A DNA stretch of 64,000 nucleotides from an uncultured Desulfospira sp. (GTDB lineage Bacteria > Desulfobacterota > Desulfobacteria > Desulfobacterales > Desulfobacteraceae), in the NCBI GenBank assembly GCA_963663165.1, contig OY760175.1, positions 352,001 to 416,000 on the forward strand, given 5' to 3'. A program made the translations under genes and the position numbers. Below the pieces are notes generated by a model. The model was not told the origin of the DNA and searched no databases. It worked only from the letters and a program-made list of their open reading frames with translations. Below are positions 36,189 to 51,017 of the stretch, in pieces; the stretch's first letter is position 1, and every line of letters starts with the position of its first letter.

Positions 36189-39100
36189 GTTTCAATCCTT
36201 GTTGTGATGGATCAGTTTCCGGAGGCCAACGCCGGCTACGTGGCCGTTAGCATTCATTTGGTTTCAATCCTTGTTGTGATGGATCAGTTTCCGGAGGAGA
36301 TATATCTTTCTGGTCAAACACCTATCAAATAAGTTTCAATCCTTGTTGTGATGGATCAGTTTCCGGAGGCATAGAACTTGTTTGCAAGGGAATGGATCCC
36401 GATACCTGTTTCAATCCTTGTTGTGATGGATCAGTTTCCGGAGGCAGGCACATAATAAAGGATGCCTGGTACAGATAAGGTTTCAATCCTTGTTGTGATG
36501 GATCAGTTTCCGGAGGAAGGCTGGATTATGGACTGGCAAGCATTAGATAAGGTTTCAATCCTTGTTGTGATGGATCAGTTTCCGGAGGATGAAATGGAAG
36601 AGATGAAAATCAAATATGTTGGCAAGTTTCAATCCTTGTTGTGATGGATCAGTTTCCGGAGGCCGGTATTCTCTACGGTTGCACAATGCACTTGTTCAGT
36701 TTCAATCCTTGTTGTGATGGATCAGTTTCCGGAGGTGGAGAATTGTCCTTCTCCACGGTTGTTTCCTCAAGGTTTCAATCCTTGTTGTGATGGATCAGTT
36801 TCCGGAGGAGACGATGACCTTGACGCCCAATTGGGAGATGGAACGTTTCAATCCTTGTTGTGATGGATCAGTTTCCGGAGGTGGAGAGAGTCCAGACGAT
36901 GGAAGGCTTTCCATATGTTTCAATCCTTGTTGTGATGGATCAGTTTCCGGAGGAGCGCCAATGTCAGGGATGGCGACAAGCTGGTCAAGTTTCAATCCTT
37001 GTTGTGATGGATCAGTTTCCGGAGGTATGTGCGGCGAGAGGACTGGATCATGAGTTTTGGTTTCAATCCTTGTTGTGATGGATCAGTTTCCGGAGGTGAC
37101 CGCAGGATTTATCCATGACTGCTCCACCTGGGGTTTCAATCCTTGTTGTGATGGATCAGTTTCCGGAGGCCGGAGAAAGTGGAGGTCAACCTCCTGCCGG
37201 CCGGGTTTCAATCCTTGTTGTGATGGATCAGTTTCCGGAGGCGCATCACCGCTCAACTCATAGGTAATGGAATCCAAGTTTCAATCCTTGTTGTGATGGA
37301 TCAGTTTCCGGAGGTTGGCGGTTTTATCCTTCAGGCACCAACAATAGTGATGTTTCAATCCTTGTTGTGATGGATCAGTTTCCGGAGGGCAGATCCGGGA
37401 GTGAATCTAATCGGTACCGCAACGGTTTCAATCCTTGTTGTGATGGATCAGTTTCCGGAGGACTGGCAAGCCCCGCCGAAAACTGGTTCCCGAAATGTTT
37501 CAATCCTTGTTGTGATGGATCAGTTTCCGGAGGTGTTGTGTCTGCTGGTTTAACTGCGGTTGGTAGAAGGTTTCAATCCTTGTTGTGATGGATCAGTTTC
37601 CGGAGGCGAGATTACGGGTTATGTGGCTGATACTCGTCCTGGAGTTTCAATCCTTGTTGTGATGGATCAGTTTCCGGAGGCGATTGTATAAATAAGGAAT
37701 AAGTGTTTTCGATTTTGTTTCAATCCTTGTTGTGATGGATCAGTTTCCGGAGGTATCTTTGAGACCGGGCTTAAGCATGCGTTTTCCGGTTTCAATCCTT
37801 GTTGTGATGGATCAGTTTCCGGAGGGATCATAAGGCGGCCCGGATAATCCAGGCATGCAAAGGTTTCAATCCTTGTTGTGATGGATCAGTTTCCGGAGGC
37901 TAATCGTGATCCGCCCAGATATGACCGGCTTTTGTGTTTCAATCCTTGTTGTGATGGATCAGTTTCCGGAGGGGTGGATGGTGGCCCCGGTGCTGTACCC
38001 CTCACAAAGTTTCAATCCTTGTTGTGATGGATCAGTTTCCGGAGGTCTTTTTCTTAGGGGAAAAATGGCTGGAGTGGGCCAAGTTTCAATCCTTGTTGTG
38101 ATGGATCAGTTTCCGGAGGGAGCCGGGCGTCCATCTTATGGAATTGGTTGAACGGGTTTCAATCCTTGTTGTGATGGATCAGTTTCCGGAGGTGATGTCC
38201 GGGTCGCCATGGAATCCGGCAGGATGGGGTTTCAATCCTTGTTGTGATGGATCAGTTTCCGGAGGCTGAAGAGAAGGGGATTCCCAAACCCCTTAGACGG
38301 GGGTTTCAATCCTTGTTGTGATGGATCAGTTTCCGGAGGGCCCCGTTTGCCAGCCAGGCCCTGGCCGATCAGGGGGGTTTCAATCCTTGTTGTGATGGAT
38401 CAGTTTCCGGAGGCAGCAGCCAGCTGGACGGCAACCAGGTTCTGCTGGAGTTTCAATCCTTGTTGTGATGGATCAGTTTCCGGAGGACCTGCCTTCAATC
38501 AACATGCGGCGGATGAAAGAAAGTTTCAATCCTTGTTGTGATGGATCAGTTTCCGGAGGAAAGATATCCAGATCATCCCTGTTGGAGACTTCTCAAGTTT
38601 CAATCCTTGTTGTGATGGATCAGTTTCCGGAGGTCTATACGGCATTGCCGTATGATTTTATCATGTTCAAGTTTCAATCCTTGTTGTGATGGATCAGTTT
38701 CCGGAGGTGAATCTGGCATTATGAACCAACGAACTTTTATGGCGTTTCAATCCTTGTTGTGATGGATCAGTTTCCGGAGGTGGGGCCTTGCATACGGAAA
38801 CCTCCCGCACAAAAGGGTTTCAATCCTTGTTGTGATGGATCAGTTTCCGGAGGCATCCTATGAATTCAGGTATTGTTCAATGGCCCGGAGTTTCAATCCT
38901 TGTTGTGATGGATCAGTTTCCGGAGGGCGCCGGGCATGAGCATGACGGCGATGCATTGATCGAGTTTCAATCCTTGTTGTGATGGATCAGTTTCCGGAGG
39001 CGGTTCAACAGTTTCAGCTCCCGCCAGACCCTCAGAGTTTCAATCCTTGTTGTGATGGATCAGTTTCCGGAGGGCCGTCGTAGCACTCCGTTGTCAGCCC

Positions 39101-40680
39101 GGCGTCCAGGTTTCAATCCTTGTTGTGATGGATCAGTTTCCGGAGGCGGGTATGCCAGGTATGCCCCTCTTTGTACTGATCTTGTTTCAATCCTTGTTGT
39201 GATGGATCAGTTTCCGGAGGCCGCTGCATGAGCCGGTCATAGTCCTGCCGGGGAAGTTTCAATCCTTGTTGTGATGGATCAGTTTCCGGAGGAGGATGAG
39301 TAAGAATGTTCCAAGAGTATTGGGAAAAGTTTCAATCCTTGTTGTGATGGATCAGTTTCCGGAGGCTCAACCACCTTTGCCCGCCCGTTATACGGTTTGG
39401 GTTTCAATCCTTGTTGTGATGGATCAGTTTCCGGAGGCCATTTCGCCACGGGCAGGGGAAATAGCTTTAATGGAGTTTCAATCCTTGTTGTGATGGATCA
39501 GTTTCCGGAGGGGGAAATTCCCTGCTCAAGCTGCACCTGTGCAATATGTTTCAATCCTTGTTGTGATGGATCAGTTTCCGGAGGTAGTGTGACAGCCGAT
39601 ATTCATCAATTGATTCTTTATGTTTCAATCCTTGTTGTGATGGATCAGTTTCCGGAGGTTGATCCGCTGGCGGCGTCAAGCTGGTATGTGTACTTGTTTC
39701 AATCCTTGTTGTGATGGATCAGTTTCCGGAGGCAGCAATGTCGGTGACACCCTAAAAACACCCAAAAAGTTTCAATTCTTGTTGTGATGGATCAGTTTCC
39801 GGAGGACAGGGTAAAATCCTTTCGTATGCCCGTTGAATCGAGTTTCAATCCTTGTTGTGATGGATCAGTTTCCGGAGGCCAAGGCGCTTCTGGTGGTTCA
39901 TCAAGAGGTCATAGGTTTCAATCCTTGTTGTGATGGATCAGTTTCCGGAGGACCTGAAGAATACTTGTTTTTACACCTTAACTTGAAGTTTCAATCCTTG
40001 TTGTGATGGATCAGTTTCCGGAGGTTGTCAACCGCCTTGTTTATCTCAGGGGTTTGGGCCAGTTTCAATCCTTGTTGTGATGGATCAGTTTCCGGAGGCA
40101 ACACAATAGTGAGGAGTAGGTTTCTATGCGGATGTTTCAATCCTTGTTGTGATGGATCAGTTTCCGGAGGATTATAACGGAAAAAGAGGTCGAGGCATTG
40201 GAAATTGTTTCAATCCTTGTTGTGATGGATCAGTTTCCGGAGGACATGATACACCAAGCTCAACGCCGTCTACCCTGAGTTTCAATCCTTGTTGTGATGG
40301 ATCAGTTTCCGGAGGTGCCTGGCAAGTGATTGAATCTTTGCCGGTAGAAATAGTTTCAATCCTTGTTGTGATGGATCAGTTTCCGGAGGGCCACAGAAAG
40401 GAGAAATACCATGAAAACAGCATTCAGTTTCAATCCTTGTTGTGATGGATCAGTTTCCGGAGGAATATCCGTCAGGTCTTGATGATAGATGTCCAGCGGT
40501 TTCAATCCTTGTTGTGATGGATCAGTTTCCGGAGGAGGGGGTCTTTACCATTAAGTGAGATTGTTAATTACGGTTTCAATCCTTGTTGTGATGGATCAGT
40601 TTCCGGAGGTCCAATGGATACTATATTCAAACCATGACCATGAGTTTCAATCCTTGTTGTGATGGATCAGTTTCCGGAGG
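36189..40680 (-). CRISPR. CRISPR array, 62 repeats / 61 spacers (manual count), 37-bp repeat CCTCCGGAAACTGATCCATCACAACAAGGATTGAAAC
   Basis: Repeats every 71-75 bp; one variant seen (C>T at 39777); orientation from the ATTGAAAC 3' end and the AT-rich leader next to cas4. Confidence 0.98.
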
Positions 40681-40836: not shown

Positions 40837-41439
40837 TTATCTTTCGCAAATATTTTTATAGCAACAATCAATACATCTTGTTTTATATGCAGTCCCTTTT
40901 GGGTATCGACAATTGGTAATTGTTTGATGCATATTAAAAATTATCTGGTCAAATTGTTTGAAATCTTTAATTGACAGGTTGACTTCGATTAATTTGTTTT
41001 TGCTTCTTGTGAATACCAAAAATCCTTGATTAACATTAGTGTCATAATTTTCGATAATTAACTTTGCGTAGAATACAAGTTGAAATCGGTGGGTCATGAA
41101 TAATCGGTTTTTGAATTTCGCGTATTTGAAATCTAATGGGGCCGCTGTGTGGTCTGAAAAAAATAATATTTCATCAACAACTCCACGAAGGCCCGATTTT
41201 GTAGACAGATAAACATTATTGCGTTTTTCAACCACATTAAGCTTTTTTCTTAGATATTGCCGGTTTGTTTTAATCGCAGATTCATGTATAGATCTTCCTT
41301 TCATTACTTTGAATCTTTTTTCCTGTCGTTCTGGTATATCGAGAACATACTCAAAATATGTAAATCGGGGACAATACAAGTATTCTAAGAGGTGGGTTGC
41401 GGTAAAATTGCAAGTGGCATTCATGTCTTTAACTTTCAA
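40837..41439 (-). CDS. cas4: CRISPR-associated exonuclease Cas4
   Basis: YLYCPR, GVVDE..PLDFK, QLVFY, C-terminal CIDCCYKNIC Fe-S cysteines. Confidence 0.93.
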   Translation of the reverse strand: MKVKDMNATCNFTATHLLEYLYCPRFTYFEYVLDIPERQEKRFKVMKGRSIHESAIKTNRQYLRKKLNVVEKRNNVYLSTKSGLRGVVDEILFFSDHTAAPLDFKYAKFKNRLFMTHRFQLVFYAKLIIENYDTNVNQGFLVFTRSKNKLIEVNLSIKDFKQFDQIIFNMHQTITNCRYPKGTAYKTRCIDCCYKNICER

Positions 41440-41447
41440 GATGTTCT

Positions 41448-43754
41448 TTAGAAAAATATGTCGCTGTCAAAATTATCTATGTCTTTGATCTCAAATCCTC
41501 TGCCTGGAGTGTAATATTTATCATTTAAAAAATTATAACATCCGATCTGATCAGAAATAACAGATGGATCGATTTTTTTTGAGGTCCAAATAGAAACCGT
41601 AACTTGGGCGATTCTTGATTTTAATTTTCTTAACTGCCGTTCTCGACTCCATCTGTCATCTATTTCAATGGCGAGCCTCAATTCTTCATGAAGCAGACCA
41701 GAACCGGCTGGTGGTTCATCTTGAGATGCGACAATAAAATCTATTTTTTCATGATCTCCGCGAAGCAGTTTTTTTACATTGAGATCTTCTCGCCAAAAAG
41801 CCCAGTCATCAGCAAATCGTTTTCCAACATTCATGCCTTCTTTAATAAGACGAAAATACTCAGTAATTAATTGAAACACATTCTCTTCCGGTATTGTCTC
41901 TGAAGCTTGGTTTAATATAACGCCTGTATATTCTAAAAGAGTTTTATCGTAAACAAGCCTGGAATATTTTGTATTGTTTTGGCCACATAAATTTACGATT
42001 TCAACATCAGCTCTTTTTTTTGTTCCATTACGATTGCACCGGCCAGCACATTGAACCAGGGAATCGATAGGGGCAAAATCTCTTATGACCAAGTCCATAT
42101 CGATATCTACTCCAGCTTCAATGCATTGGGTAGCAATAACGAGGCATGGCCCCTCATTTTTAATCTTATCAATATTTTCCAGTCTTTCCTTGGGTGTTAC
42201 GTCTGCGCTAAGAAAATAGGCTGCGCTTTGAATGTGGCTTCCCAGGGAATCCATTACAAATCTGGCGGATTTTCTTGTATTTAAGACAATCAGAATTTTT
42301 TTTTGATGCCAGTTTTCATCGTTTATTCGATGAATGCAGTTCTCAATGAAGGATTCAATTGATATCTTCTCAAGCCTTAAGATCATTTGATATCTGGTTT
42401 GCTGTTCAAATATCTCATCGGGGTTGTTAACCAGTTCCTTGGTTTTTATAAAATTAGGTTGAGTTGCCGACATTATCAAGAACTTAGAATTGAAATTCGT
42501 GGTAAGTGTGGAGACTGCAAGATTCAATGGTTCCCACAATTGAGGTGGTAAAGCCTGAATTTCATCCATGATAATCAAAGCATCAGTTAAATTGTGGAAA
42601 CGCAGCAGATGTTTTTTTTCGGAAGAAAGAAGTGCATACAAAAATTGATCAAAAGTCGTGATGATGAAATCATAATTCCAGGTTTCTGAAAAAAAATCTA
42701 CCGCCTTATTATAATCGTTGTCGATGTCCTGGTCCTCTCCTTCCTTGTACTGACGTCCGGCGATGGAGTGGGCCTCCAGAATTATGTTTTCGGCATTGCA
42801 GCCTGAGAATAACTGTCTGTACTCTTTTACGGTCTGGTCAATGATTGATAAAAACGGCAGCACGATAATTACTTTTCTGGACACAGGTGAACCCATTCTG
42901 TGTGTCAATGCCCATTGAGCTGCGACCAGGGTTTTTCCAAGTCCTGTGGGCAGTGTTACGCTTTCAATATTGGGATCAATGGAACTGTTCTGGATAATCT
43001 GCTGCCTGACAATGGTTCTTTTTTGATTCAGCGGCTCCTTTCTCTGCTTTTCTGTTGTTTTACTGATAATGTAGTTATCTATTAAACACGGGGGTAATTC
43101 AGTTTCTTTAGATCGGTCTGTATTTGAATCTCTGAATTCAGGGCTTAAAGCCAGAAAAGTCCGGTCCGATTCCAAAAGAACGGAAAATAGCAATTGGGCT
43201 TTAAGCCTTGTTAGCGAAGCAATTTCCAGTGAAAGGGTTTCAATATAATTCTCCGGTAAAATATCTTCCAACTGGAGATCGGAATCTTTTTGTTTAAAAT
43301 CAAGCTGTAAATCTAATTCTCGATTCACCTGATCAACGGGATAGAGTCCTATCTTATAGTCGTCTTCGTAAAAGTACAGTGTATTGTAAAATAATTCCTT
43401 GATGGTTGGAAATCTGCCATGATGACGCCATATGGCAGCAGTGACAATCAATGCAAACTCATTTGGGATTTCACTTTTCAACGCATAGGCAAGCCACAGC
43501 AAGAGCGAAACCGGGGTATGGGCCTTTAGAATTGGATCCCCCCTATATTTCTCAGGCGCTTCGATATAGGCTTGGAAGGCCGGGGTGGCTTTCCCAAGAT
43601 CATGGAAGTCAATTGCAAGATTTAGCGGGTAATGAAGCACTTCACAAACTTGATCAGAGTGCTTTTTTTCAATCAGTCTGCCTGCCTGGTGTACTTCATA
43701 AACGTGATCTTTCAACGATTTATACGGCTTGCAATGGGACTGAATCATAGCCAT
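41448..43754 (-). CDS. cas3: CRISPR-associated helicase/nuclease Cas3
   Basis: HD domain (HDLGK, HHG), PTGLGKT, DEIQ, SAT, QCAGRCNR. Confidence 0.95.
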   Translation of the reverse strand: MAMIQSHCKPYKSLKDHVYEVHQAGRLIEKKHSDQVCEVLHYPLNLAIDFHDLGKATPAFQAYIEAPEKYRGDPILKAHTPVSLLLWLAYALKSEIPNEFALIVTAAIWRHHGRFPTIKELFYNTLYFYEDDYKIGLYPVDQVNRELDLQLDFKQKDSDLQLEDILPENYIETLSLEIASLTRLKAQLLFSVLLESDRTFLALSPEFRDSNTDRSKETELPPCLIDNYIISKTTEKQRKEPLNQKRTIVRQQIIQNSSIDPNIESVTLPTGLGKTLVAAQWALTHRMGSPVSRKVIIVLPFLSIIDQTVKEYRQLFSGCNAENIILEAHSIAGRQYKEGEDQDIDNDYNKAVDFFSETWNYDFIITTFDQFLYALLSSEKKHLLRFHNLTDALIIMDEIQALPPQLWEPLNLAVSTLTTNFNSKFLIMSATQPNFIKTKELVNNPDEIFEQQTRYQMILRLEKISIESFIENCIHRINDENWHQKKILIVLNTRKSARFVMDSLGSHIQSAAYFLSADVTPKERLENIDKIKNEGPCLVIATQCIEAGVDIDMDLVIRDFAPIDSLVQCAGRCNRNGTKKRADVEIVNLCGQNNTKYSRLVYDKTLLEYTGVILNQASETIPEENVFQLITEYFRLIKEGMNVGKRFADDWAFWREDLNVKKLLRGDHEKIDFIVASQDEPPAGSGLLHEELRLAIEIDDRWSRERQLRKLKSRIAQVTVSIWTSKKIDPSVISDQIGCYNFLNDKYYTPGRGFEIKDIDNFDSDIFF

Positions 43755-44473
43755 TGGAGTATATGCTCCCCTGCTTTTACGGCATGTTCCGTTTCGATTG
43801 AAAGTGTATTGCCACCAACCGGGTATAGATATGTTGCATGGGAAAACTGCCTGTCGCTTGTCAGAGCGCGGGGCATACGAATGGATTTTGCCGCCATGTT
43901 CTTTTCAAGAAGATCCTCTATATTCAAAGATACCTGATCCCGACGGATCAATGTTTTTACGTGGTATTTTCCCATGGGTAATGGTTCTACTGCCGAAGTA
44001 TTCACAAAGGTCAGGTCTGCCGCCATTTCAGACAGCCCAAGGCAGGGTGAAAAATGCCACTGTCTGGTTTTAATTCGGCGACATAAATCAGAATAAAAGG
44101 GCTCGGGGATTTGAGCGAAAACGGTATAGTCAGGGCGGATGAGCCATTCCTGAATGATCTGGGTATTTCTTTGGTGTTTTGAAGATCCCAGCGCATTTTT
44201 TGTTACCTGAAACGGTAGCATGCCCGGCGGATCTTTCCTCAAGTTGGCAGTATGCCAATGGGTCAGGGCAGAACCTCCTGAAACGGCAATGTTTGCGTCT
44301 TCAAGCTTTACCTGGCAAGTGTCTTTTTCAAAGCCCATCACGGCACCGAGCAGGCCGAGCAATGCTGTTCGCGGTGGAAATGGGTAGCTTGGGGCCGACG
44401 CATTCGCTTCGGCCCTTAAAAAATGTCCGTATTTCCCCGTGTATTTAAAAATGACACATTGATTGTTTGTCAT
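43745..44473 (-). CDS. cas5: Cas5 (type I-B)
   Basis: GKYGHF...SYPFPPRTALLGLLGAVMG, PCLG; position in the operon. Confidence 0.9.
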   Translation of the reverse strand: MTNNQCVIFKYTGKYGHFLRAEANASAPSYPFPPRTALLGLLGAVMGFEKDTCQVKLEDANIAVSGGSALTHWHTANLRKDPPGMLPFQVTKNALGSSKHQRNTQIIQEWLIRPDYTVFAQIPEPFYSDLCRRIKTRQWHFSPCLGLSEMAADLTFVNTSAVEPLPMGKYHVKTLIRRDQVSLNIEDLLEKNMAAKSIRMPRALTSDRQFSHATYLYPVGGNTLSIETEHAVKAGEHILQWL

Positions 44474-44489
44474 TGTTTGTCCTCAAAAA

Positions 44490-45425
44490 TTAATCAATTT
44501 TAAGAGCAGTCCAGTCTGCAGGAAGCGCAGATGAAAATTCGATATCCGGTGATGCTTCATATGATATTGCCTCAATTTTTTCAGAAAATTGATTAAGTCT
44601 TTCCAAAAGCTGGTTTAAATCCACCTGATAATCCTTTGGAGAGCTCCATGCCTTTTCTTCTTTCCCATTTTTAGGAACTAAAGCAATATAATCTGACAGG
44701 TTCCCGAATTGAAATTCTGTGTCCTTTTTGTAAGTCAAGGATATCAAAAGCCTCGGGACCTGACCGAATTTGGATCGCGTATTACCGGCACCCCTTACTC
44801 CCTTCCACATGGTTTCAAGCACCGTATTGTAGTCAGTTTCGGTCATCCTGGACAACCGGGCTGAATGCTCGTTTGCAACACCATTAAATCCGATAAGCGC
44901 ATACCTCAACGCATAATAGGCGGTAAAGGTGCCCTGGGTTTTGCTTTCGCTGGAACCAAAGGTCGTTGTGCCATGGATATCTACAGGCTCCGCATCATGC
45001 ATCACCTCTCCATGATTAAACTGCAATGCCCCGGTTAAGGTTTTGGGTACCGGCTTGGCCTCCCAGGTCCCCTCCTGCTTAAAAGCTAATGAGCTGCCAA
45101 ACAATCTGGCATCAATAAAGGAATCCAGAAGGATCGTTACAAGTTCCTCACCGGTGGCTTCTGGTTTCCCTATCTTCTGAAGATGATGGGCTACTCGTCC
45201 GGTCAAGTTGGTGGTCTTGTCTTCAATGGTATCAACAAGGATGGCATGTCCCTGGGTTTTGAACTGATCTCTGATAAACCGTTTCAATCTGACATCCGTG
45301 ACATAGTAGGTGCCGTCCGGCAATACCCTGGGTCGATTTTCATCGGGATCGCCATTTGGGTTCCCCATTTTAATATCATATGCAAAAAACAGTTCCCGCC
45401 TTGAGGTCAATAATTCATTTGTCAT
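44490..45425 (-). CDS. cas7: Cas7 (Csh2-like, type I-B)
   Basis: NPNGDPDENRPR, VTDVRLKRFIRD, IDARLFG, TRSKFGQVPR. Confidence 0.93.
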   Translation of the reverse strand: MTNELLTSRRELFFAYDIKMGNPNGDPDENRPRVLPDGTYYVTDVRLKRFIRDQFKTQGHAILVDTIEDKTTNLTGRVAHHLQKIGKPEATGEELVTILLDSFIDARLFGSSLAFKQEGTWEAKPVPKTLTGALQFNHGEVMHDAEPVDIHGTTTFGSSESKTQGTFTAYYALRYALIGFNGVANEHSARLSRMTETDYNTVLETMWKGVRGAGNTRSKFGQVPRLLISLTYKKDTEFQFGNLSDYIALVPKNGKEEKAWSSPKDYQVDLNQLLERLNQFSEKIEAISYEASPDIEFSSALPADWTALKID

Positions 45426-45442
45426 CGGTATATCTCCTTAAG

Positions 45443-47440
45443 TTATTTTTTTGTTTCTTTTTTAGTTGAAAACAAATCTGAGGCGATTGATTGGCCTAAA
45501 AGAATAAAGTAGCAGCATGGGGTTTGATCTAACGAAATGGTGTCGCCCAAAAGGGTTCCAAGAGCACCGGCTTCCCTGATGACCTCCCTGAGTTGAGAAC
45601 TGCCTTCAGCATCATATGCCAATAGCTTCTCGCGAATTTTAACGTAAAAGCCCGGCAAATCCTTACCCGTTAGAGTGAGTCTTTTCAGCCATGTCAGGGC
45701 ATTGGCATTGACATTGACCCCTTTGCCCCCCTGAAGGGCAAGCACACGTCCGAATAAGATTCCAAGAATAAAAGCAAACGCTTTTTCGTTACTTGTGATA
45801 CCGGATTCTTCAGAAAAGTACGGTTCAAGATCTTTCATTTTCGGGACGTAGGTTCTTAGGTTTTCCATTTTAATCATTACCTCCATGTGGTGTAAATAAC
45901 TAAGGGCCCAGGCCAGATGTCTGATCCATCCGGCAAAGGTCCACCAGTATGTATCATTTTTTTGTGAAAACCCTTCCTGCAGACAATCGAATTCCGGTTT
46001 TTCTTTTTCAAGGATGGATAGCAGGTACCACCGGGCAGTGGTCAGTATTTCTTCTTCAAACCGCTGTTTAGGAATGGGCTTATTTTTGTATATGGCCTCA
46101 ACCATCAAGCGTTTAAGCTCCGTGAGCTTTCTGCTGGCGTTTACGCTGCCCGCTTTTTTGCCACCCGGTCTTCGCAGCAAGGGGAAAATAAATGAACAAT
46201 TTAGGTCGAACTTAAATTCTTCTATAACGGCGTGAATTGGGAAAAGCGGAGAACTTTTTTCATTAAACTCCCTGTTCAGCTTGTCAATCTGCTTTAGCCT
46301 TGAGGGAAGAATATCGGTAATTTTTCCCGATAGATTTCCCATACTTTGGCCTTTTAGGCTGTCGTTGGACCAAATCACATCAACCGAGCATACAGCCGTA
46401 TGCCTTTTAAAAAGTCTTATCAGTTTTAATTGTTCAATTTTCAGCGCCTCTTGGGGGGCACTGGCAATTTCTTTGATATAGACCTGGTAATCTGCTATGA
46501 ACTTCGAAATTAGATCTGAATCACTGTACAACTCTGGAATCATAAGTGATTCCTGACCGGCAAGGTAGGTGATGAAATTATGATTGACATGAAATTTATA
46601 AACATAAAGCAAATCTGCGCAATGTTCACACAGGGCATATGAGAGATGGGCATTCTGGTTGGTTATCCCCGGAAATGCACCCTCACGGTCAATATTAAAA
46701 ATATTCATCCCGGCTTTGGACAGACCCGCAGCAAACCCTTTGACATTTTTCGACCCGCAGCAGGGGCATTGGTCCAGGTCAACAGGTTTTGCTTTGGCCA
46801 AGGAATATTTTTTTTCACCGTCCAGCATGGTGGCCAGATAATTCCTATATCCTGAAACCTGTCCAGGGAGACAGCCTTGTGTTTTAAACGCTAAAAAGAC
46901 TGGCTTTGATTCGGGAATAATCTCAACTGCGGTATGAAAAGCATTATGCTTGCACTCGTGAAGTTCTCCAGCATAATAAAGCCTTGCGTGGCTGAAGACC
47001 CGGTGACATTCTTTAAAAAAACCTGCCCACTCCTTTTCTGATGTTGAAAATTTTTCAAAATTTTTAAGGGTGGAGGTGATGATCTGCAGGGTGGGGCCCG
47101 GACCTTTCTGCTTGGAATAGGAGCGCTTGATGACAGGGCCGATTTGCGGAGACCGAGGACCGCTTGGTTTGTTAAAAGGCAGAAAAGAGGCTACATTTTC
47201 ACCTAATGATTCAATGGAAGCACTCTCAAGAATTGTACCGTTTTCATCTTCCGGAGATTGACTCAGGGTATAATATTTTTCTATCTTTCCGGATGGTTCA
47301 ACCAGAAAGGGGAAAAATCGCCCCGGATCTCTATTCTTTTCTTGGACAAACCATTGTCTCAGATCCTCCGGAAGGGGATTGATACCCTCAAGGTTTTTCC
47401 AAAGATGACAGAGTGCCAGGTTTTGCATTATATCAAGCAT
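45443..47440 (-). CDS. cas8b: Cas8b large subunit (Csh1/TM1802-like)
   Basis: 665 aa between cas6 and cas7; CPCC and CEHC zinc motifs; C-terminal AFILGILFGRV small-subunit-like region. Confidence 0.82.
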   Translation of the reverse strand: MLDIMQNLALCHLWKNLEGINPLPEDLRQWFVQEKNRDPGRFFPFLVEPSGKIEKYYTLSQSPEDENGTILESASIESLGENVASFLPFNKPSGPRSPQIGPVIKRSYSKQKGPGPTLQIITSTLKNFEKFSTSEKEWAGFFKECHRVFSHARLYYAGELHECKHNAFHTAVEIIPESKPVFLAFKTQGCLPGQVSGYRNYLATMLDGEKKYSLAKAKPVDLDQCPCCGSKNVKGFAAGLSKAGMNIFNIDREGAFPGITNQNAHLSYALCEHCADLLYVYKFHVNHNFITYLAGQESLMIPELYSDSDLISKFIADYQVYIKEIASAPQEALKIEQLKLIRLFKRHTAVCSVDVIWSNDSLKGQSMGNLSGKITDILPSRLKQIDKLNREFNEKSSPLFPIHAVIEEFKFDLNCSFIFPLLRRPGGKKAGSVNASRKLTELKRLMVEAIYKNKPIPKQRFEEEILTTARWYLLSILEKEKPEFDCLQEGFSQKNDTYWWTFAGWIRHLAWALSYLHHMEVMIKMENLRTYVPKMKDLEPYFSEESGITSNEKAFAFILGILFGRVLALQGGKGVNVNANALTWLKRLTLTGKDLPGFYVKIREKLLAYDAEGSSQLREVIREAGALGTLLGDTISLDQTPCCYFILLGQSIASDLFSTKKETKK

Positions 47441-47454
47441 GGACCCACTCCTTT

Positions 47455-48126
47455 TTATAGTATTTTCTGGATGGTGCCGAATCCCCGTGATACTGATTTC
47501 CCAAGTCCTATATAGTCCGGCAATAGAAAATTTGTTTTAAAAATGCCTTTAAACCCGATCATCGATTTACCCTTTAAAGTAGTTTTCGATGGCTTAATGC
47601 TAAGGTCTGTTTCAATTCTCTGGTCTCGTTCTAAATGGCAGCCAAGATATTTGGCACAGGACAGGATATTTCCGGTAAGAATTTTTTTAAGAAGTGATTT
47701 TTTGTCCCTGCTGTCAGCCATTTCGGTAAACAGGTTATAATTGTGCTGATTTAATGCCAGCCATAACGATTTAAATTCATACATAAATGTTTCTGGCGAG
47801 AATCCGAAATCCGTATTTTCGATTTTCAGATTTTTTTCATTAATTGGAATAACCTTGCCTTCAATGTCGACTTTGTCCAGTGTCATGAAAATTTGCATGA
47901 ATATCTGAATCGCTTTTTCTGTCAAGGCGATTATACAGGGCGTCTGATCAACAAGTTTAAACTGGATCAAAGGATATCGATAAATGTGTTGGCCGGTTTT
48001 TGTATTATGGTTGTGAACCAGATCATACTCGGAAAATACGTTGCCGACATAACCCCTGAATTTATGGATCTGGGAGGGGGTTAGGCGGATGTCATTAAAA
48101 TAAAGAGATGCTTTTTTCACAATCAT
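47455..48126 (-). CDS. cas6: CRISPR RNA endonuclease Cas6
   Basis: LVHNH, YRYPLIQFK, C-terminal glycine loop GLGKSVSRGFG. Confidence 0.92.
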   Translation of the reverse strand: MIVKKASLYFNDIRLTPSQIHKFRGYVGNVFSEYDLVHNHNTKTGQHIYRYPLIQFKLVDQTPCIIALTEKAIQIFMQIFMTLDKVDIEGKVIPINEKNLKIENTDFGFSPETFMYEFKSLWLALNQHNYNLFTEMADSRDKKSLLKKILTGNILSCAKYLGCHLERDQRIETDLSIKPSKTTLKGKSMIGFKGIFKTNFLLPDYIGLGKSVSRGFGTIQKIL

Positions 48127-48141
48127 TATTCCAGTATTAGC

Positions 48142-48342
48142 TTAAAATTTGTGATGATTGTTTTTGCTACAGCCAATCTGTAATCCAAATGAAAAATTTA
48201 AAGAAAACAAATAAGTCTTTCGTGACGGAATTGTACCCATCGTCGGTTTGGCAAGTTTGATTTTTGTGAAAACTGAATCCGAATAGTTGCTGACATTTTT
48301 TTTAAGGGTCATGAAATGGTTTGGGATCAAATTTTTGTTCAT
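48142..48342 (-). CDS. 66-aa basic hypothetical ORF leading the cas6 operon (candidate CRISPR-regulated toxin or leader)
   Basis: SD GGAGGT 4 nt before ATG 48342; stop 15 nt before cas6; no recognisable family. Confidence 0.45.
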   Translation of the reverse strand: MNKNLIPNHFMTLKKNVSNYSDSVFTKIKLAKPTMGTIPSRKTYLFSLNFSFGLQIGCSKNNHHKF

Positions 48343-48369
48343 TCTTACCTCCAAATTTGGCCTACATAG

Positions 48370-48389
48370 TTAATCCTATATCACATTAA
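48370..48389 (-). promoter_or_regulatory. Protospacer-like target of the mini-array spacer with putative TTA PAM
   Basis: - strand TTA|ATGTGATATAGGATTAA versus spacer ATGTGCTATAGAATTTA (14/17); downstream of TTGACA at 48435-48430. Confidence 0.7.
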
Positions 48390-48443
48390 AAATTTTGTGT
48401 GGCTTTAATCTTTTCATCTTCTGTCATTTTGTCAAGAAAAAAC

Positions 48444-48472
48444 TTGAAAATAAAAATACCAATACCCATAAT
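48444..48472 (+). promoter_or_regulatory. Sigma70 promoter of the CRISPR-like RNA
   Basis: TTGAAA-17 nt-CATAAT; predicted start at about 48478-48479, where the first degenerate repeat begins. Confidence 0.65.
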
Positions 48473-48477
48473 TAGCT

Positions 48478-48558
48478 ATCCATGTCAGAAAAAAGGATTG
48501 AAAAATGTGCTATAGAATTTAGCTATGACTGCTAATCCATTATAATAAGGATCGAATT
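48478..48558 (+). ncRNA. CRISPR-resembling regulatory RNA (CreR/CreA-like mini-array: pseudo-repeat, 17-nt spacer, pseudo-repeat)
   Basis: ATCCATgtcagaaaaAAGGATTGAAAA + ATGTGCTATAGAATTTA + gctatgactgctaATCCATtAtAAtAAGGATcGAAtt (18/24 to the 3' part of the array repeat). Confidence 0.75.
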
Positions 48559-48563
48559 TGCAG

Positions 48564-48863
48564 TTAAAAAAACTTGGATAAAATTTCATCATTCACCAAT
48601 TTCCTGTCAAAGCCTTGGCCCAACACCTGGATGCGTCTAAAGTCCTCCTGGCAGAATGGGAAGAGATAAACACTGTCCGTGTCTTCGTCCATGAGATCCA
48701 GACAGTATTCGGCCAGCTCGTCGAAACGGCTGGTGTCCAGGTGGCCCAAAAAGATGCTTTTCTGGACGCGGGTCAAGCCGTATTTTTTGCAGACCTTTGC
48801 AATTTTACTCCGGACCTTATTCTCGGCAATGTCATACATGATCCAGGCGAGGATGGAACTCAT
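48564..48863 (-). CDS. cas2: CRISPR-associated endonuclease Cas2
   Basis: IMYDI, RVQKSIF, DSVYLFP; start overlaps the cas1 stop. Confidence 0.95.
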   Translation of the reverse strand: MSSILAWIMYDIAENKVRSKIAKVCKKYGLTRVQKSIFLGHLDTSRFDELAEYCLDLMDEDTDSVYLFPFCQEDFRRIQVLGQGFDRKLVNDEILSKFF

Positions 48864-49876
48864 TAAAACTCCTTTATTGTAAGCCAGTCAGGGCGGACCA
48901 TATCGGAATCTTCTAAAAGGATATTGGCCAGGCGGTGTGCCTCGTGACTGATTATATGTTTTCGTTTGACGTTTTTCCTGCGATAGCGAACTTTTTCCTC
49001 CAAATGTTTGTTCAATGCATCTATGACCTGTGGTTTGCCTTTTGTATTCAGTGTGCAGGAATGTTCCTGGACATCGAAGTATTCACCTTTTGCCTTTTTG
49101 CCGGTGAAAAAATACACCGCCACCTGATCAGCAAAGATTCGGAAGGGTTCAATAAGGTCAAAGACCAGGGACTTTTTATTGTAGTTATCGGAATGCATAA
49201 AGCCCACAAAGGGATCAAGTCCGGCAATGATGCAGGCTTTCTCAACCCGCGAATAAAGGACCCCATAACAATAGTTCAGGGCAGCGTTAAAGGGATTCAG
49301 TGCCGGATGCCTTGACCGGCCTTTGAACCGGTATTTTTCCGGCATGACTTTAGAAATGCAGGAAAAATATGCCCGGCCGGCTGCTCCTTCAAGGCCCATG
49401 ATAAGAGATCGGGATTTATCAAGATCGCTAAGATCACAATTCAATGCTTCAAGGGAACCCTCAATGGTATGAATGGGGGCGTCAAACATATCCTTTTTAT
49501 CCCGTCGGGCATATTTGAGTTTTTTCAGAAAGGCAATCTGGTTTTCCAGTTTGTTTTGTATCATACCAATGACCAGCCTTACCCCGGTCTCGTCTTCAGC
49601 TGCTTGAAGCTGCTTTCTTCGGATCAGTGCGGTAGAACCCATTTTTGAAAACCATACCCTGCCCAAAGGGAAACCATATTTGTCCAGAAATACCAGGTCA
49701 ATATTGTGCTCCAGGGCCAGGGAGATAGCAGCGGTAGAAACCATTGCCTGGTTGGAAACAATAATTGATTCCAGCTTCAATGGTGATAATTCCAGTTTGT
49801 TTTCCCTGTTCTGAAACAAAAAAATTTCATTTTTCTGTTTAACCAGGGTGCCGGGAGAGTTAACTATTAATTGGAT
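48863..49876 (-). CDS. cas1: CRISPR-associated endonuclease Cas1 (apparent ATC start)
   Basis: GLEGAAGRAYF, NAALNYCYG, GFMH, FDLIEPFR; frame extends to ATC-CAA-TTA-ATA-GTT 7 nt after AAGGAG. Confidence 0.93.
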   Translation of the reverse strand: MQLIVNSPGTLVKQKNEIFLFQNRENKLELSPLKLESIIVSNQAMVSTAAISLALEHNIDLVFLDKYGFPLGRVWFSKMGSTALIRRKQLQAAEDETGVRLVIGMIQNKLENQIAFLKKLKYARRDKKDMFDAPIHTIEGSLEALNCDLSDLDKSRSLIMGLEGAAGRAYFSCISKVMPEKYRFKGRSRHPALNPFNAALNYCYGVLYSRVEKACIIAGLDPFVGFMHSDNYNKKSLVFDLIEPFRIFADQVAVYFFTGKKAKGEYFDVQEHSCTLNTKGKPQVIDALNKHLEEKVRYRRKNVKRKHIISHEAHRLANILLEDSDMVRPDWLTIKEF

Positions 49877-49889
49877 ATCAAATCTCCTT

Positions 49890-51017
49890 TCAAATTTTTA
49901 CAAGCTTGAACTCCGTTGCTGCGGTTTTGATTTCTTCTATTTCCGGGGTGGCCGGGGCCAGCTGCTCGGCGGCCGTGAGCAGGTCATAAAACCTGCCGTT
50001 GGCGTTGATGATCCGGCGGCTGTTGTCGGGCTCGCCAAAGCCGGTCTGGTGGTAGTGGGTCTGGATCTGGGTTTTGAAGGTTTCGCTTAATGGACCTGTG
50101 ATGAGGTTAAGTTCCAGGAGGCGGTAGAGAAAGGCTTCGGCTGAGATGCCGAACCGGTGTTTGATGCGAAGCAGAAGGTCAAAGGTCCAGGTGTCAGGGG
50201 TGATCCCCAGCTGCCCGATCGTGGCCCGGACAGCGGTGGCCGGTGCCAGAAACGTGGCGGCAAAGCATCGGGCGGCCCGGATGGGGGTGACGGGCCGGGG
50301 GCCGGGATCGGATTCGGGGAAAAGGGTGTCTTTTCTGATTCTGATCTGGTTGAAGATCAGGATTTTGCCAAGCTCTGTGGCAAGGGAGAAAAGCTGTTTT
50401 TCCGGGTTCTTCTTTGCGTCGATGAAAAAAAAGGCGTTCTGGTGGATGGGTTCGTAAAAGGAGACGGCGTCAAAGTCTTGGGCCGCCTTCATGAAAGGGA
50501 GGACGAGGATGCGCAATCCAAAATTTTCAAACAGTTCCAGGTAGTCAAATACCACGGCGTCCCCGGTGCCCATGGCGTCCCTGACCCTTTGGGACAGATG
50601 TTCCATGCCCGGATAGTCCGGTTCAAAGGGGAGGGTCAGGGGAACAAGGGCGTGTTTTTGAACACCCAGGATGTCTTCCAGTGCATGGAAGGCGGTCATG
50701 AGTTGGTGGCACACCGACAGCAGTGGCTTGGGCGGGATGACCGGGTCTTGATCAATGGCCGTAAACAGGGCGTCGGTGTCGGCGGCTGAGGCCCGGGCCT
50801 GGGTCAGTTCCGGGGAAAACAGGGCGTCGGCCGGGACATCTAAGGCCTGGGTGAGGCTGTAGATCACCGCTGCCGAGGGCAGGTTGATGCCCCGTTCAAT
50901 GCGGCCGAGGGGGCCTTCCCGGATGCCGATTTTGGCGGCAAGCCGGGCCAGGGTCCAGTTTCGGGACCGGCGGAAAAAACGGATGTTTTTTCCGATAAAT
51001 TTTAGGTCGTCGCTCAT
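49890..51017 (-). CDS. XRE-family HTH fused to an ImmA/IrrE-like (DUF955) domain with a degenerate zinc motif
   Basis: IGKNIRFFR..WTLARLA..IERG HTH; FSLATELGKIL where HELGH is expected; FAATFLAP. Confidence 0.8.
   Translation of the reverse strand: MSDDLKFIGKNIRFFRRSRNWTLARLAAKIGIREGPLGRIERGINLPSAAVIYSLTQALDVPADALFSPELTQARASAADTDALFTAIDQDPVIPPKPLLSVCHQLMTAFHALEDILGVQKHALVPLTLPFEPDYPGMEHLSQRVRDAMGTGDAVVFDYLELFENFGLRILVLPFMKAAQDFDAVSFYEPIHQNAFFFIDAKKNPEKQLFSLATELGKILIFNQIRIRKDTLFPESDPGPRPVTPIRAARCFAATFLAPATAVRATIGQLGITPDTWTFDLLLRIKHRFGISAEAFLYRLLELNLITGPLSETFKTQIQTHYHQTGFGEPDNSRRIINANGRFYDLLTAAEQLAPATPEIEEIKTAATEFKLVKI

Follow-up and report, generated by a model that had tools for sequence, protein, structure and literature searches.

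A putative CreR/CreA-type regulatory mini-CRISPR in the cas2-cas6 gap of a type I-B locus from a Desulfobacterales-like genome

Described regulatory mini-arrays and the type I-B host locus

Regulatory mini-arrays of the CreR/CreA type are a class described in 2021–2023. Type I-B mini-arrays upstream of cas6, with targets between themselves and cas6, are already in print according to the available excerpts of two preprints (bioRxiv 10.1101/2023.03.03.530964; 10.1101/2023.03.10.532045). The element analysed here shares with the mini-arrays of Shmakov et al. (10.1101/2023.03.03.530964, PMC10120712), as excerpted, two repeat-like sequences and a short spacer beside cas6, a predicted target between mini-array and cas6 beside a PAM (a putative one in the present case), a better preserved seed-side repeat, and spacer mismatches at positions 6 and 12 (noted there for I-F1). 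The I-B examples named in these excerpts are from Clostridium perfringens and Fusobacterium, whereas the present element, from a Desulfobacterales-like genome, runs divergently from cas6 and has an orphan ORF between target and cas6.

A second reference is CreR/CreA of CreTA (Liu et al., 10.1101/2023.03.10.532045), a degenerate mini-CRISPR with autorepression of effector genes, an activity that we propose for the present locus as well. Also in common are, in the available text, a pseudo-repeat 1 with an 8-nt handle, a pseudo-repeat 2 with the 3' part of the repeat, and a guide that pairs in part with a PAM-flanked site at or beside the cas promoter, PAM and promoter being putative in our case. 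The cases tested there come from Haloarcula (type I-B, mini-array between cas6 and cas8), Salmonella (I-E) and a type V-A system. Unlike these, the present mini-array, with its guide of 17 nt, occupies the cas2-cas6 gap of a Desulfobacterales-like genome and is known from sequence alone. Functional data on short guides are available for the type I-B system of Parageobacillus thermoglucosidasius, where, in the excerpts available, guides of 11-26 nt repress without cleavage in the presence of Cas3 (PMC10551041); those guides were engineered, in contrast to the natural mini-array described here. The element adds an instance to a known class, whose design is already in print, and leaves the field's picture unchanged. 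Its value is that of a well-documented instance, and it would add a sulfate-reducer-type (Desulfobacterales-like) lineage to those known to use crRNA-like RNAs for self-repression by Cascade.

The window, the whole 64,000-nucleotide stretch analysed, contains a complete type I-B cas locus with full-length cas1, cas2, cas6b, cas8b, cas7, cas5, cas3 and cas4:

36189..40680, minus strand (transcribed strand): CRISPR array with 61 spacers between 62 repeats, each repeat 37 nt long
40837..47440, minus strand: cas8b (TM1802 family), cas7, cas5, cas3 and cas4, all in one orientation and separated by short gaps
47455..48126, minus strand: cas6b (Cas6b_N 7.3e-24, Cas6b_C 2.5e-39), presumably encoding the processing enzyme; of the cas genes it is the first to follow the target
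48564..49819, minus strand: cas2 and cas1, upstream of the gap

The genes cas8b-cas7-cas5-cas3-cas4 presumably form one transcription unit with cas6b. The array is the only one in the 6.74-Mb genome. Its spacer 48 matches a chromosomal oxidoreductase gene at 35/35 positions (flank CCG), and a need for tight control of Cascade is plausible because the genome carries this perfect self-targeting spacer.

Pseudo-repeats, guide and target in the cas2-cas6 gap

The mini-array and its surroundings comprise the following features:

48142..48354 (reading frame 48142-48342), minus strand: 66-aa orphan ORF, first frame behind the target (ATG 48342, SD GGAGGT 48352..48347)
48386..48370, minus strand: target protospacer ATGTGATATAGGATTAA, flank TTA at 48389..48387; 14/17 identical to the guide, mismatches 6, 12 and 16
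48407..48435, minus strand: candidate promoter for the small ORF together with the cas6 unit, TTGACA (48435..48430), 17 nt, AAGATT, as read from the sequence
48444..48472, plus strand: promoter-like site of the mini-array, TTGAAA (48444-48449), 17 nt, CATAAT (48467-48472), 10/12 consensus matches
48468..48504, plus strand: pseudo-repeat 1, hairpin ATCC 48478-48481 / GGAT 48495-48498 retained
48505..48521, plus strand: pseudo-spacer (guide) of 17 nt, ATGTGCTATAGAATTTA
48522..48558, plus strand: pseudo-repeat 2, hairpin ATCC 48535-48538 / GGAT 48549-48552 retained
48539..48567, minus strand: second promoter-like site, TTAACT-17-TATAAT, 10/12 matches, overlapping the cas2 stop and pseudo-repeat 2

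In the cas2-cas6 gap, 7.7 kb away from the CRISPR array, a short spacer is thus enclosed by two degenerate versions of the array repeat. In pseudo-repeat 1 the 5' handle ATTGAAAA (48497-48504) agrees with the array handle ATTGAAAC in 7/8 positions, the last handle base being changed; the hairpin loop is 3 nt longer than that of the array repeat, and the 5' third of the pseudo-repeat has given way to the -10 box of the plus strand promoter-like site, with a predicted start near 48478-48480, at the foot of the hairpin. The final 24 nt of pseudo-repeat 2 are identical to the array repeat in 18/24 positions, its last 8 nt are decayed (5/8), and on the plus strand it gives a sub-threshold match to the Rfam family CRISPR-DR7 (17.5 bits, E = 1.5). 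Retention of the handle in pseudo-repeat 1 and of the hairpin in pseudo-repeat 2 agrees with the decay rule published for such elements (10.1101/2023.03.10.532045, available excerpts). The two best same-strand repeat-like segments of the gap reached a summed score of 29.5. AT-matched segments of the genome had a mean of 16.9 (sd 2.0) and a maximum of 24, which places the gap 6 SD higher, and 0/3000 of them scored as high. The 11-mer AAGGATTGAAA occurs eight times outside the array in 13.5 million positions.

The guide shows seed-first partial complementarity to the TTA-flanked site, which lies beside the predicted promoter of the cas unit. Pairing spans 17 nt, and there is no in-register match past position 17. 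The handle adjoins the guide arm and TTA adjoins the target arm, while AAA, which resembles the repeat-adjacent AAC, flanks the guide in its own DNA. Guide positions 6 and 12, which type I Cascade flips out, account for two of the three mismatches (for this locus by itself, own arithmetic gives P = 0.022). When 48127-48477 was dinucleotide-shuffled, matches of 14/17 or better arose with P = 0.0024, and none of 5000 shuffles gave an intact seed (positions 1-5 and 7-11). Genome-wide, the pseudo-spacer has 12 placements with three substitutions and none with one or two. One further combination of TTA and seed (G000:C1:4183659, 13/17) lies just past the stop of an HTH gene, outside a promoter; with about 0.2 such sites expected, it was taken as chance and rejected as a second target.

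The mini-array and its target had been proposed in an earlier note made from the sequence alone, and its coordinates were reproduced throughout, as were the plus strand promoter-like site, both pseudo-repeats, the ATCC/GGAT stem of the second, and the 17-nt guide with its minus strand target. Two of its statements required revision. The target does lie between TTGACA and the SD of the first gene, but this gene is the 66-aa orphan ORF and not cas6 itself; and the TTGACA box is present, but its -10 element is weak (AAGATT, 3/6) and was not called by the promoter scan. The TTGACA box and the mini-array promoter are divergent and 8 nt apart. The target is located about 10-30 nt downstream of the start predicted from TTGACA and 17 nt upstream of the SD of the 66-aa ORF, and it is also downstream of the TTAACT-17-TATAAT site. 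Some points count against the regulatory reading of this locus: the target covers no good -10 box, the -10 of the TTGACA promoter is weak, and pseudo-repeat 1 has the longer loop and the changed handle base described above.

Inverted 17-nt arms, 118 nt apart, in an AT-rich insertion could also be the ends of a small mobile element (terminal inverted repeats) or resemble a mini-array by chance. This explanation is extremely unlikely: the gap DNA is single-copy in the genome, and for each of two independent features chance is excluded at a level of about 1e-3 or better. That the element is what decay has left of an earlier array end or old mini-array, now neither transcribed nor bound, appears decidedly unlikely. 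Such a relic would be in line with the degeneration of both pseudo-repeats (a loop insertion in the first, 18/24 in the second), with the lack of an orthologue showing purifying selection among 160 family genomes and two genus mates, and with promoter calls that are consensus matches in AT-rich DNA (5 sites versus 2.5 expected). Decay has, however, spared exactly what the mechanism needs, namely handle, both hairpins, seed and flank, two of the three mismatches are on non-pairing positions, and a -35/-10 pair replaces the part of pseudo-repeat 1 that is not needed, its 5' part.

The putative PAM was approached through the 61 array spacers. Only spacer 48 has a protospacer in the genome itself, the self-match flanked by CCG, and a phage collection gave no protospacer match. 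Spacer matches in the 401 genomes of the order occurred in 21 genomes, all between array repeats except the own-genome matches, and the 24-nt cores of spacers 1-3 had no match in three scans of viral contigs. According to Table 1 of PMC13199841, TTA is an accepted PAM for Thermotoga maritima (YYD), H. thermocellum (TTN/TNA) and P. thermoglucosidasius (TTA), and these three are all the published type I-B systems of bacteria in which Cas8b1 goes together with an AAC-terminated repeat. The natural protospacer flank of P. thermoglucosidasius, given in the available part of PMC10551041, is TTTTA, and the flank in the window is TTTTTA.

The element is likely a regulatory mini-CRISPR of the CreR/CreA type, i.e. 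a gene for a crRNA-like RNA, and through its guide the CRISPR complex probably throttles its own production. The plus strand promoter at 48444-48472 would give rise to a short RNA starting at the hairpin of pseudo-repeat 1. Cleavage by Cas6b at the 3' foot of both hairpins would release an RNA in which the handle AUUGAAAA is followed by the 17-nt guide and a portion of pseudo-repeat 2, and this RNA would be taken up by Cascade (Cas8b-Cas7-Cas5). The loaded complex may then bind the TTA-flanked site 48386..48370 with 14/17 pairing, two mismatches being at flipped-out positions. It should stay bound without cutting because the 17-nt pairing is well below the 24-26 nt that license Cas3 in type I-B, a threshold borrowed from PMC10551041 as excerpted. 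Bound Cascade would block transcription of the 66-aa ORF and of cas6-cas8b-cas7-cas5-cas3-cas4. Read-through from cas1-cas2 would also meet it, and attenuation of read-through is likewise proposed in the Figure S5 legend of Liu et al. (10.1101/2023.03.10.532045). Array crRNAs would compete with the mini-array RNA, and a decrease in free Cascade by loss, by titration with the 61 array crRNAs or by an anti-CRISPR would lift the block, the derepression being borrowed from the literature. The stretch is present as contigs in six runs from two studies, none of them recorded as RNA.

Analogous mini-arrays within the order

A pattern of handle, short gap and hairpin was searched in 401 genomes of the order and gave 15 matches in 13 genomes, compared with 0 for the reversed control. 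A nearby match of at least 13/17 accompanies five of the 15 loci, the window included; the other ten reach only 10-12/17. The five are:

Window: 14/17, mismatches 6, 12 and 16, flank TTA
G222: 15/17, mismatches 12 and 17, flank TTA
G483: 13/17, mismatches 6, 12, 16 and 17, flank TTA
G503: 16/17, mismatch 12, flank TTA
G383: 14/17, mismatches 6, 12 and 17, flank TCA

The mini-arrays of the four other genomes are analogous and non-orthologous to that of the window. All four have 17-nt pseudo-spacers, three have the flank TTA and one TCA, and all are hosted by type I-B loci, three between cas2 and cas6 and that of G383 before cas8b. Their targets overlap a predicted -10 box. Position 12 is mismatched in 5/5 loci and position 6 in 3/5, and every other mismatch is at 16 or 17; mismatches on 6 and 12 in three independent lineages have a combined probability of 0.022 x 0.022 x 0.118, about 6e-5 (own arithmetic). 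Among G222, G483 and G503, positions 3 and 13 change jointly in guide and target, while 6 and 12 drift in the target alone. This pattern of mismatch and compensation fits Cascade binding, and the five loci may be read as a natural read-out of the rule by which these type I-B systems bind: the guide measures 17 nt, the flank is TTA or TCA, and the target may drift at 6 and 12 while changes at other positions are compensated. The covariation of guide and target that the earlier note had suggested looking for in homologous loci was found in these analogues, as joint changes at 3 and 13, but orthologous loci were not found. With the comparison included, the CreR/CreA-like class named in that note is the best reading of the sequence.

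The orientation of the arms raises a further explanation, in which they act as RNA independently of Cascade, as a leader stem or through an antisense plus strand transcript directed at the leader and the 3' end of cas2. In the window alone the arms are inverted, which counts against the Cascade reading, and all but two mismatches pair in the cas-sense RNA: of the 17 arm positions one forms a G.U pair and two stay mismatched, and the MFE fold of 48535..48343 includes the stem. A comparable inverted repeat occurs at the same place in L032, where all mismatches are G.U in the cas-sense RNA and a handle is not recognisable. The fold is, however, no better than that of shuffles (z = -0.99; 33/200 shuffles at least equal). 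This explanation also does not account for the repeat-like sequences on either side, for a handle that directly abuts the arm, for the TTA flank, or for the recurrence of the same mismatch rule in four loci whose guide and target are direct repeats, in which a hairpin is impossible. We consider this RNA-based explanation, stem or antisense, very unlikely.

The insertion at the cas2-cas6 junction and its 66-aa ORF

The module of about 415 nt, consisting of mini-array, divergent promoters and 66-aa ORF, is considered an insertion because cas2 and cas6 are 18-33 nt apart in the closest Cas6 relatives. A Cas2-sized ORF ends at this distance before cas6 in seven loci of Cas6 relatives, and the closest of them (53-70% identity) have no room for a mini-array; the loci L096, L047, L053 and L051 are truncated at contig ends. 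The gap DNA had no counterpart in 160 family genomes, where only short A-rich chance matches were obtained (best 46 bits), and neither of the two genus mates gave a Cas6b match; conservation of the mini-array in closely related cas loci was accordingly 0/160 at the DNA level and 0/2 among genus mates. Viral copies of the window's handle and guide, or of mini-arrays of the G222/G483/G503 type, were not found.

Three candidates among the relatives were set aside. The inverted repeat of L032 (Cas6 60% identical), with similar arms at the same place, was rejected, since it has no handle, a mismatch off 6n, and the flank AAG/TAG. A handle scan of the upstream regions of 33 relatives plus the window's own yielded L095, with a 14/17 match (mismatches 2, 6 and 13) and no hairpin, and L091, with A-rich matches; neither was counted.

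The 66-aa ORF possibly represents cargo. In the locus of CreP from Acinetobacter I-F (10.1101/2024.01.05.574328, available excerpts), too, a small ORF of the cas locus lies behind a promoter targeted by a crRNA-like RNA, a position that is predicted for the window ORF. CreP is a 103-aa KilA-C domain protein affecting cell division, in contrast to the 66 aa without family found here.

With the same RNA and binding, the main task of the element could be addiction of the CreTA/CreP kind: the ORF would be a toxin silenced by Cascade, cas repression a side effect, and cells losing or inhibiting Cascade would arrest. The module is a self-contained insertion with its own ORF directly behind the target, preceded by a strong SD (GGAGGT, 5 nt from the ATG). 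G483 and G503 carry, at the same position, a MazE-like gene, the mini-array and a PIN gene (Pfam PIN 2e-11), the third gene being shrunk to a 55-aa remnant in G222. Mini-array-controlled toxin cargo is in print, and the available text of Shmakov et al. reports mini-arrays that target toxin-antitoxin cargo (10.1101/2023.03.03.530964; see also 10.1101/2024.01.05.574328). The protein itself argues against this explanation. It has no family in Pfam or NCBIfam, a word search among 5.8 billion clusters matched only itself, and HMMER against 1.84 billion representatives gave only two repetitive proteins of no family. Its atlas recognition score is low and its single-sequence fold poor (pLDDT 66.5, pTM 0.29). 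Nor did tblastn with the L075 PIN and MazE-like proteins reveal a remnant in the gap, and a run of rare codons of the CreT kind is absent from the ORF. Addiction as the main function is therefore judged unlikely, and autorepression of the cas unit is retained as the preferred reading.

A broader view of the insert, tentative and rather unlikely, is that its approximately 415 nt constitute a portable guard cassette for type I-B systems, in which a divergent mini-array is combined with a new small toxin silenced by Cascade, and that the junction is a hot spot of toxin exchange. Such a cassette would parallel the MazE-like / mini-array / PIN cassettes that G483 and G503 carry at this junction and of which G222 has a decayed version. 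The guide of these cassettes targets the predicted -10 box of a promoter that would drive both the mini-array and a classical type II toxin.

The type I-B locus and an insertion ahead of cas6

The 6.74-Mb genome (a single contig, G000:C1, with the window at 352001-416000) contains only one CRISPR array, and a complete type I-B system is encoded on the - strand of the window in the order HTH/M78, cas1, cas2, gap, 66-aa ORF, cas6b, cas8b, cas7, cas5, cas3, cas4, array:

49890-51017 (-), HTH_3 + M78 peptidase (ImmA/IrrE-like) gene directly upstream of cas1
48863-49819 (-), cas1
48564-48863 (-), cas2
221 nt, gap between cas2 and the 66-aa ORF
48142-48342 (-), 66-aa ORF
47455-48126 (-), cas6b
45443-47440 (-), cas8b, TM1802 family
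after cas8b in this order (-), cas7, cas5, cas3, cas4
36189-40680 (-), CRISPR array of 62 repeats and 61 spacers

The HTH_3/M78 gene may encode a protein regulator of the cas locus. The nearest named relatives of Cas6 are found in Desulfobacteraceae and Thermodesulfobacteriota assemblies. Relative to the genome (50% GC) the cas locus is AT-rich, with 37% GC in cas6 and 29% in the gap. As transcribed, the array repeat ends in a small hairpin (GAUCC/GGAUU) followed by the handle AUUGAAAC. A 38-nt segment at 47359-47396 (+), which runs antisense to the cas8b start, shows 71% complementarity to the array repeat of the + strand; it reads repeat-like on the + strand, with the first 9/9 nucleotides matching the repeat 5' end, and lacks a handle at its end.

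A counterpart of the gap was not found among 160 genomes of the family, and Cas6b had no match in the two other species of the genus. The region upstream of cas6 was read in 11 loci found via Cas6 on genome and metagenome contigs and in 23 loci from 401 genomes of the order. In the closest Cas6 loci (L031, 68%; L050, 70%; L047, 63%; L033 and L048) cas2 nearly abuts cas6, and in seven loci 18-33 nt separate cas6 from the end of a same-strand ORF of Cas2 size. Because of this near contact in the closest loci, approximately 415 nt of the window (~48146-48560) are an insertion, which contains a small ORF, the target of the guide described below, two divergent promoters and the mini-array. A repeated mobile element was ruled out for the gap, since its sequence is single-copy in the genome. 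The cas2-cas6 gap of locus L032 (G162:C8, from a genome with an array of ~117 repeats) contains a 13/14 inverted repeat with arms at the cas2 stop and 25 nt before cas6; these arms are similar to those of the window but without handle or PAM, and each of their mismatches becomes a G.U pair in RNA of the cas sense.

The 66-aa ORF has a strong ribosome-binding site (SD GGAGGT, 5 nt, ATG). It had no family match in Pfam or NCBIfam and no relative by word search, and HMMER over all representatives returned just two repetitive proteins of no family; its atlas recognition score is low and its predicted fold poor. Like the PIN gene of two mini-array loci in other genomes (G483 and G503), it may be cargo that came with the insertion, or it may be noise; a CreTA-like reading of the module has low odds.

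The mini-array and its target

Re-reading of the sequence located every mini-array feature claimed in the earlier note, and added a promoter-like site missed there (last line):

48444-48472 (+), promoter-like site TTGAAA-17-CATAAT, 10/12 matches
end at 48504 (+), pseudo-repeat 1, ending in ATTGAAAA; ATCC/GGAT stem kept, loop extended by 3 nt relative to the repeat
48505-48521 (+), 17-nt pseudo-spacer (guide)
48522-48558 (+), pseudo-repeat 2; 3' part 18/24 identical to the repeat, stem kept
48386..48370 (-), target preceded by TTA; 14/17 match to the guide, mismatches at 6, 12 and 16
48567..48539 (-), second - strand promoter-like site TTAACT-17-TATAAT, overlapping pseudo-repeat 2

The target had been placed between a TTGACA box and the SD of the first gene of the cas6-cas4 operon. 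It does lie ahead of the effector unit, but the first frame behind it is the 66-aa ORF, with cas6 only thereafter; the TTGACA box is present, but its -10 (AAGATT) is weak.

Two independent features, the pair of repeat-like segments and the guide-target match, were compared with chance. The two best same-strand repeat-like segments in the gap reach a summed score of 29.5, versus a mean of 16.9 (sd 2.0, maximum 24) in 3000 AT-similar genome segments. Each pseudo-repeat alone is ordinary genome-wide, neither being among the 25 top segments outside the array (all scoring at least 15), and across 13.5 million positions the 11-mer AAGGATTGAAA has just 8 occurrences that fall outside the array. Placed anywhere in the genome, the guide finds no site at one or two substitutions and 12 at three. 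When the sequence available as target was dinucleotide-shuffled 5000 times, a match of at least 14/17 appeared at P = 0.0024, and a seed free of mismatches at positions 1-5 and 7-11 in 0/5000. The sole other genomic site combining TTA with the guide seed (G000:C1:4183659; L119 1501-1520; 13/17, mismatches 6, 12, 13 and 17) falls immediately behind a 98-aa HTH_3 gene, past its stop codon, and probably arose by chance.

Analogous mini-arrays and the mismatch pattern

The 401 genomes of the order were scanned with a pattern of handle, shortened gap and hairpin, in that order, and for the 17 nt 3' of each handle the best counterpart was sought within 500 nt. The pattern gave 15 matches in 13 genomes, and the backwards pattern none. 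Five matches had close counterparts; the remaining ten, whose best counterparts reached 10-12/17, served as internal control and are short-spacer array units or chance.

Guide-target matches in the five loci (match; mismatched positions; flank)
Window locus: 14/17; 6, 12, 16; TTA
G222: 15/17; 12, 17; TTA
G483: 13/17; 6, 12, 16, 17; TTA
G503: 16/17; 12; TTA
G383: 14/17; 6, 12, 17; TCA

Position 12 is mismatched in 5/5 loci and position 6 in 3/5, with no other mismatch before position 16. For three independent lineages (the window; G383; and the G222/G483/G503 group, represented by G503 alone) the computed chance of such placement is 0.022 x 0.022 x 0.118 = ~6e-5. No orthologue was found for the proposed alignment of spacer/target covariation. 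The analogous G222/G483/G503 group contains paired changes: at positions 3 and 13 the genomes differ, each time in both guide and target, whereas at positions 6 and 12 only the target varies. The functional parts are constant despite 8- and 16-nt indels between target and pseudo-repeat 1.

In G483 (L075, G483:C15) and G503 (L111, G503:C97) the order is cas2, a MazE-like gene, mini-array and PIN gene (Pfam MazE_antitoxin 4e-9 to 6e-8; PIN 2e-11). Next comes cas6 in G483, and in G503 the contig breaks off within the PIN gene. In G222 (L084/L106, G222:C1) the third gene has shrunk to a 55-aa PIN remnant before cas6. The 17-nt guide of this cassette, an insertion between cas2 and cas6, matches a promoter at its -10 region, and this promoter is predicted to drive both the PIN gene and the mini-array that encodes the guide. 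The G383 mini-array (L104, G383:C141:356-421) lies directly before a TM1802-type cas8b, and the TCA-flanked site matched by its guide overlies the -10 of the mini-array's own promoter. All four targets overlie a predicted -10 box (e.g. TTGACA-16-TATAGT in G503). In locus L091 (G208:C34) two tandem cas6 paralogues are preceded by a terminator-like hairpin and by several repeat ends that resemble the handle (AAGGATTGAAAA) and are partly duplicated.

It is established that in type I Cascade every sixth base of the guide is flipped out, as cited for mini-arrays in the text of Shmakov et al. (bioRxiv 10.1101/2023.03.03.530964). Selection for Cascade binding predicts mismatches restricted to positions 6 and 12, compensation of changes at other positions, and preservation of the flank. 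A protein operator does not predict the 6/12 pattern, and neither does an RNA hairpin, in which the two arms could pair in the cas-sense RNA of the window. The predicted fold of this RNA does include the arm-arm stem, but is no better than shuffles (z = -0.99), and the hairpin is impossible in G222, G483, G503 and G383, where, on the cas-gene strand, guide and target repeat each other in direct orientation. As a sequence element the mini-array is real, with solid statistics and the backing of other loci; its regulatory function is what we infer from sequence.

Proposed repression, known systems and PAM

In the proposed chain, an RNA starting near 48478 (+) would be cleaved by Cas6b at both hairpins and loaded into Cascade; the complex would bind at TTA|48386..48370 over 17 nt, Cas3 would not be licensed, and transcription into the 66-aa ORF and cas6-cas4 would be blocked. 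In P. thermoglucosidasius, guides of 11-26 nt repress without cleavage in the presence of Cas3, as described in PMC10551041. The mini-array design is already in print: according to the text of Shmakov et al., 27% of type I-B loci have repeat-like sequences close to cas6, and there are mini-arrays upstream of cas6 with targets between mini-array and cas6; the preprint of Liu et al. (bioRxiv 10.1101/2023.03.10.532045) defines CreR and demonstrates Cascade autorepression for I-B, I-E and V-A systems. The search of the literature library found no paper joining Desulfobacter with CreR, crRNA-like RNA, mini-array or CreTA; 'Desulf' is absent from the main text and two supplementary files of Shmakov et al., whose larger supplementary tables may still list the lineage. 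The window mini-array is a further instance of a known regulator class and of modest importance.

Derivation of the PAM from the 61 spacers, as had been suggested, yielded one protospacer, the CCG-flanked self-match of spacer 48, and not the PAM of this system. Spacer 48 (window 37129-37200 region) matches G000:C1:4755511-4755545 perfectly (35/35, CCG at the 5' flank) inside the gene for a 713-aa molybdopterin-binding oxidoreductase, possibly an autoimmunity risk or a tolerated non-PAM self-match. Apart from this site, protospacers were not found in the phage collection, the 401 order genomes or three viral scans. Table 1 of PMC13199841 gives the PAMs of the type I-B systems that combine Cas8b1 with an AAC repeat end: YYD in T. 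maritima, TTN/TNA in H. thermocellum and TTA in P. thermoglucosidasius. The repeat of the system in the window also ends in AAC, and its Cas8b is of the TM1802 family. TTA is compatible with all three of these PAMs, TCA with two and CCG with YYD only. Spacer 12 (39806-39841) matches the system's own cas5 (43871-43892) at 20/22 over spacer positions 10-31, seed excluded, and the pair was returned as 91% complementary in the repeat search.
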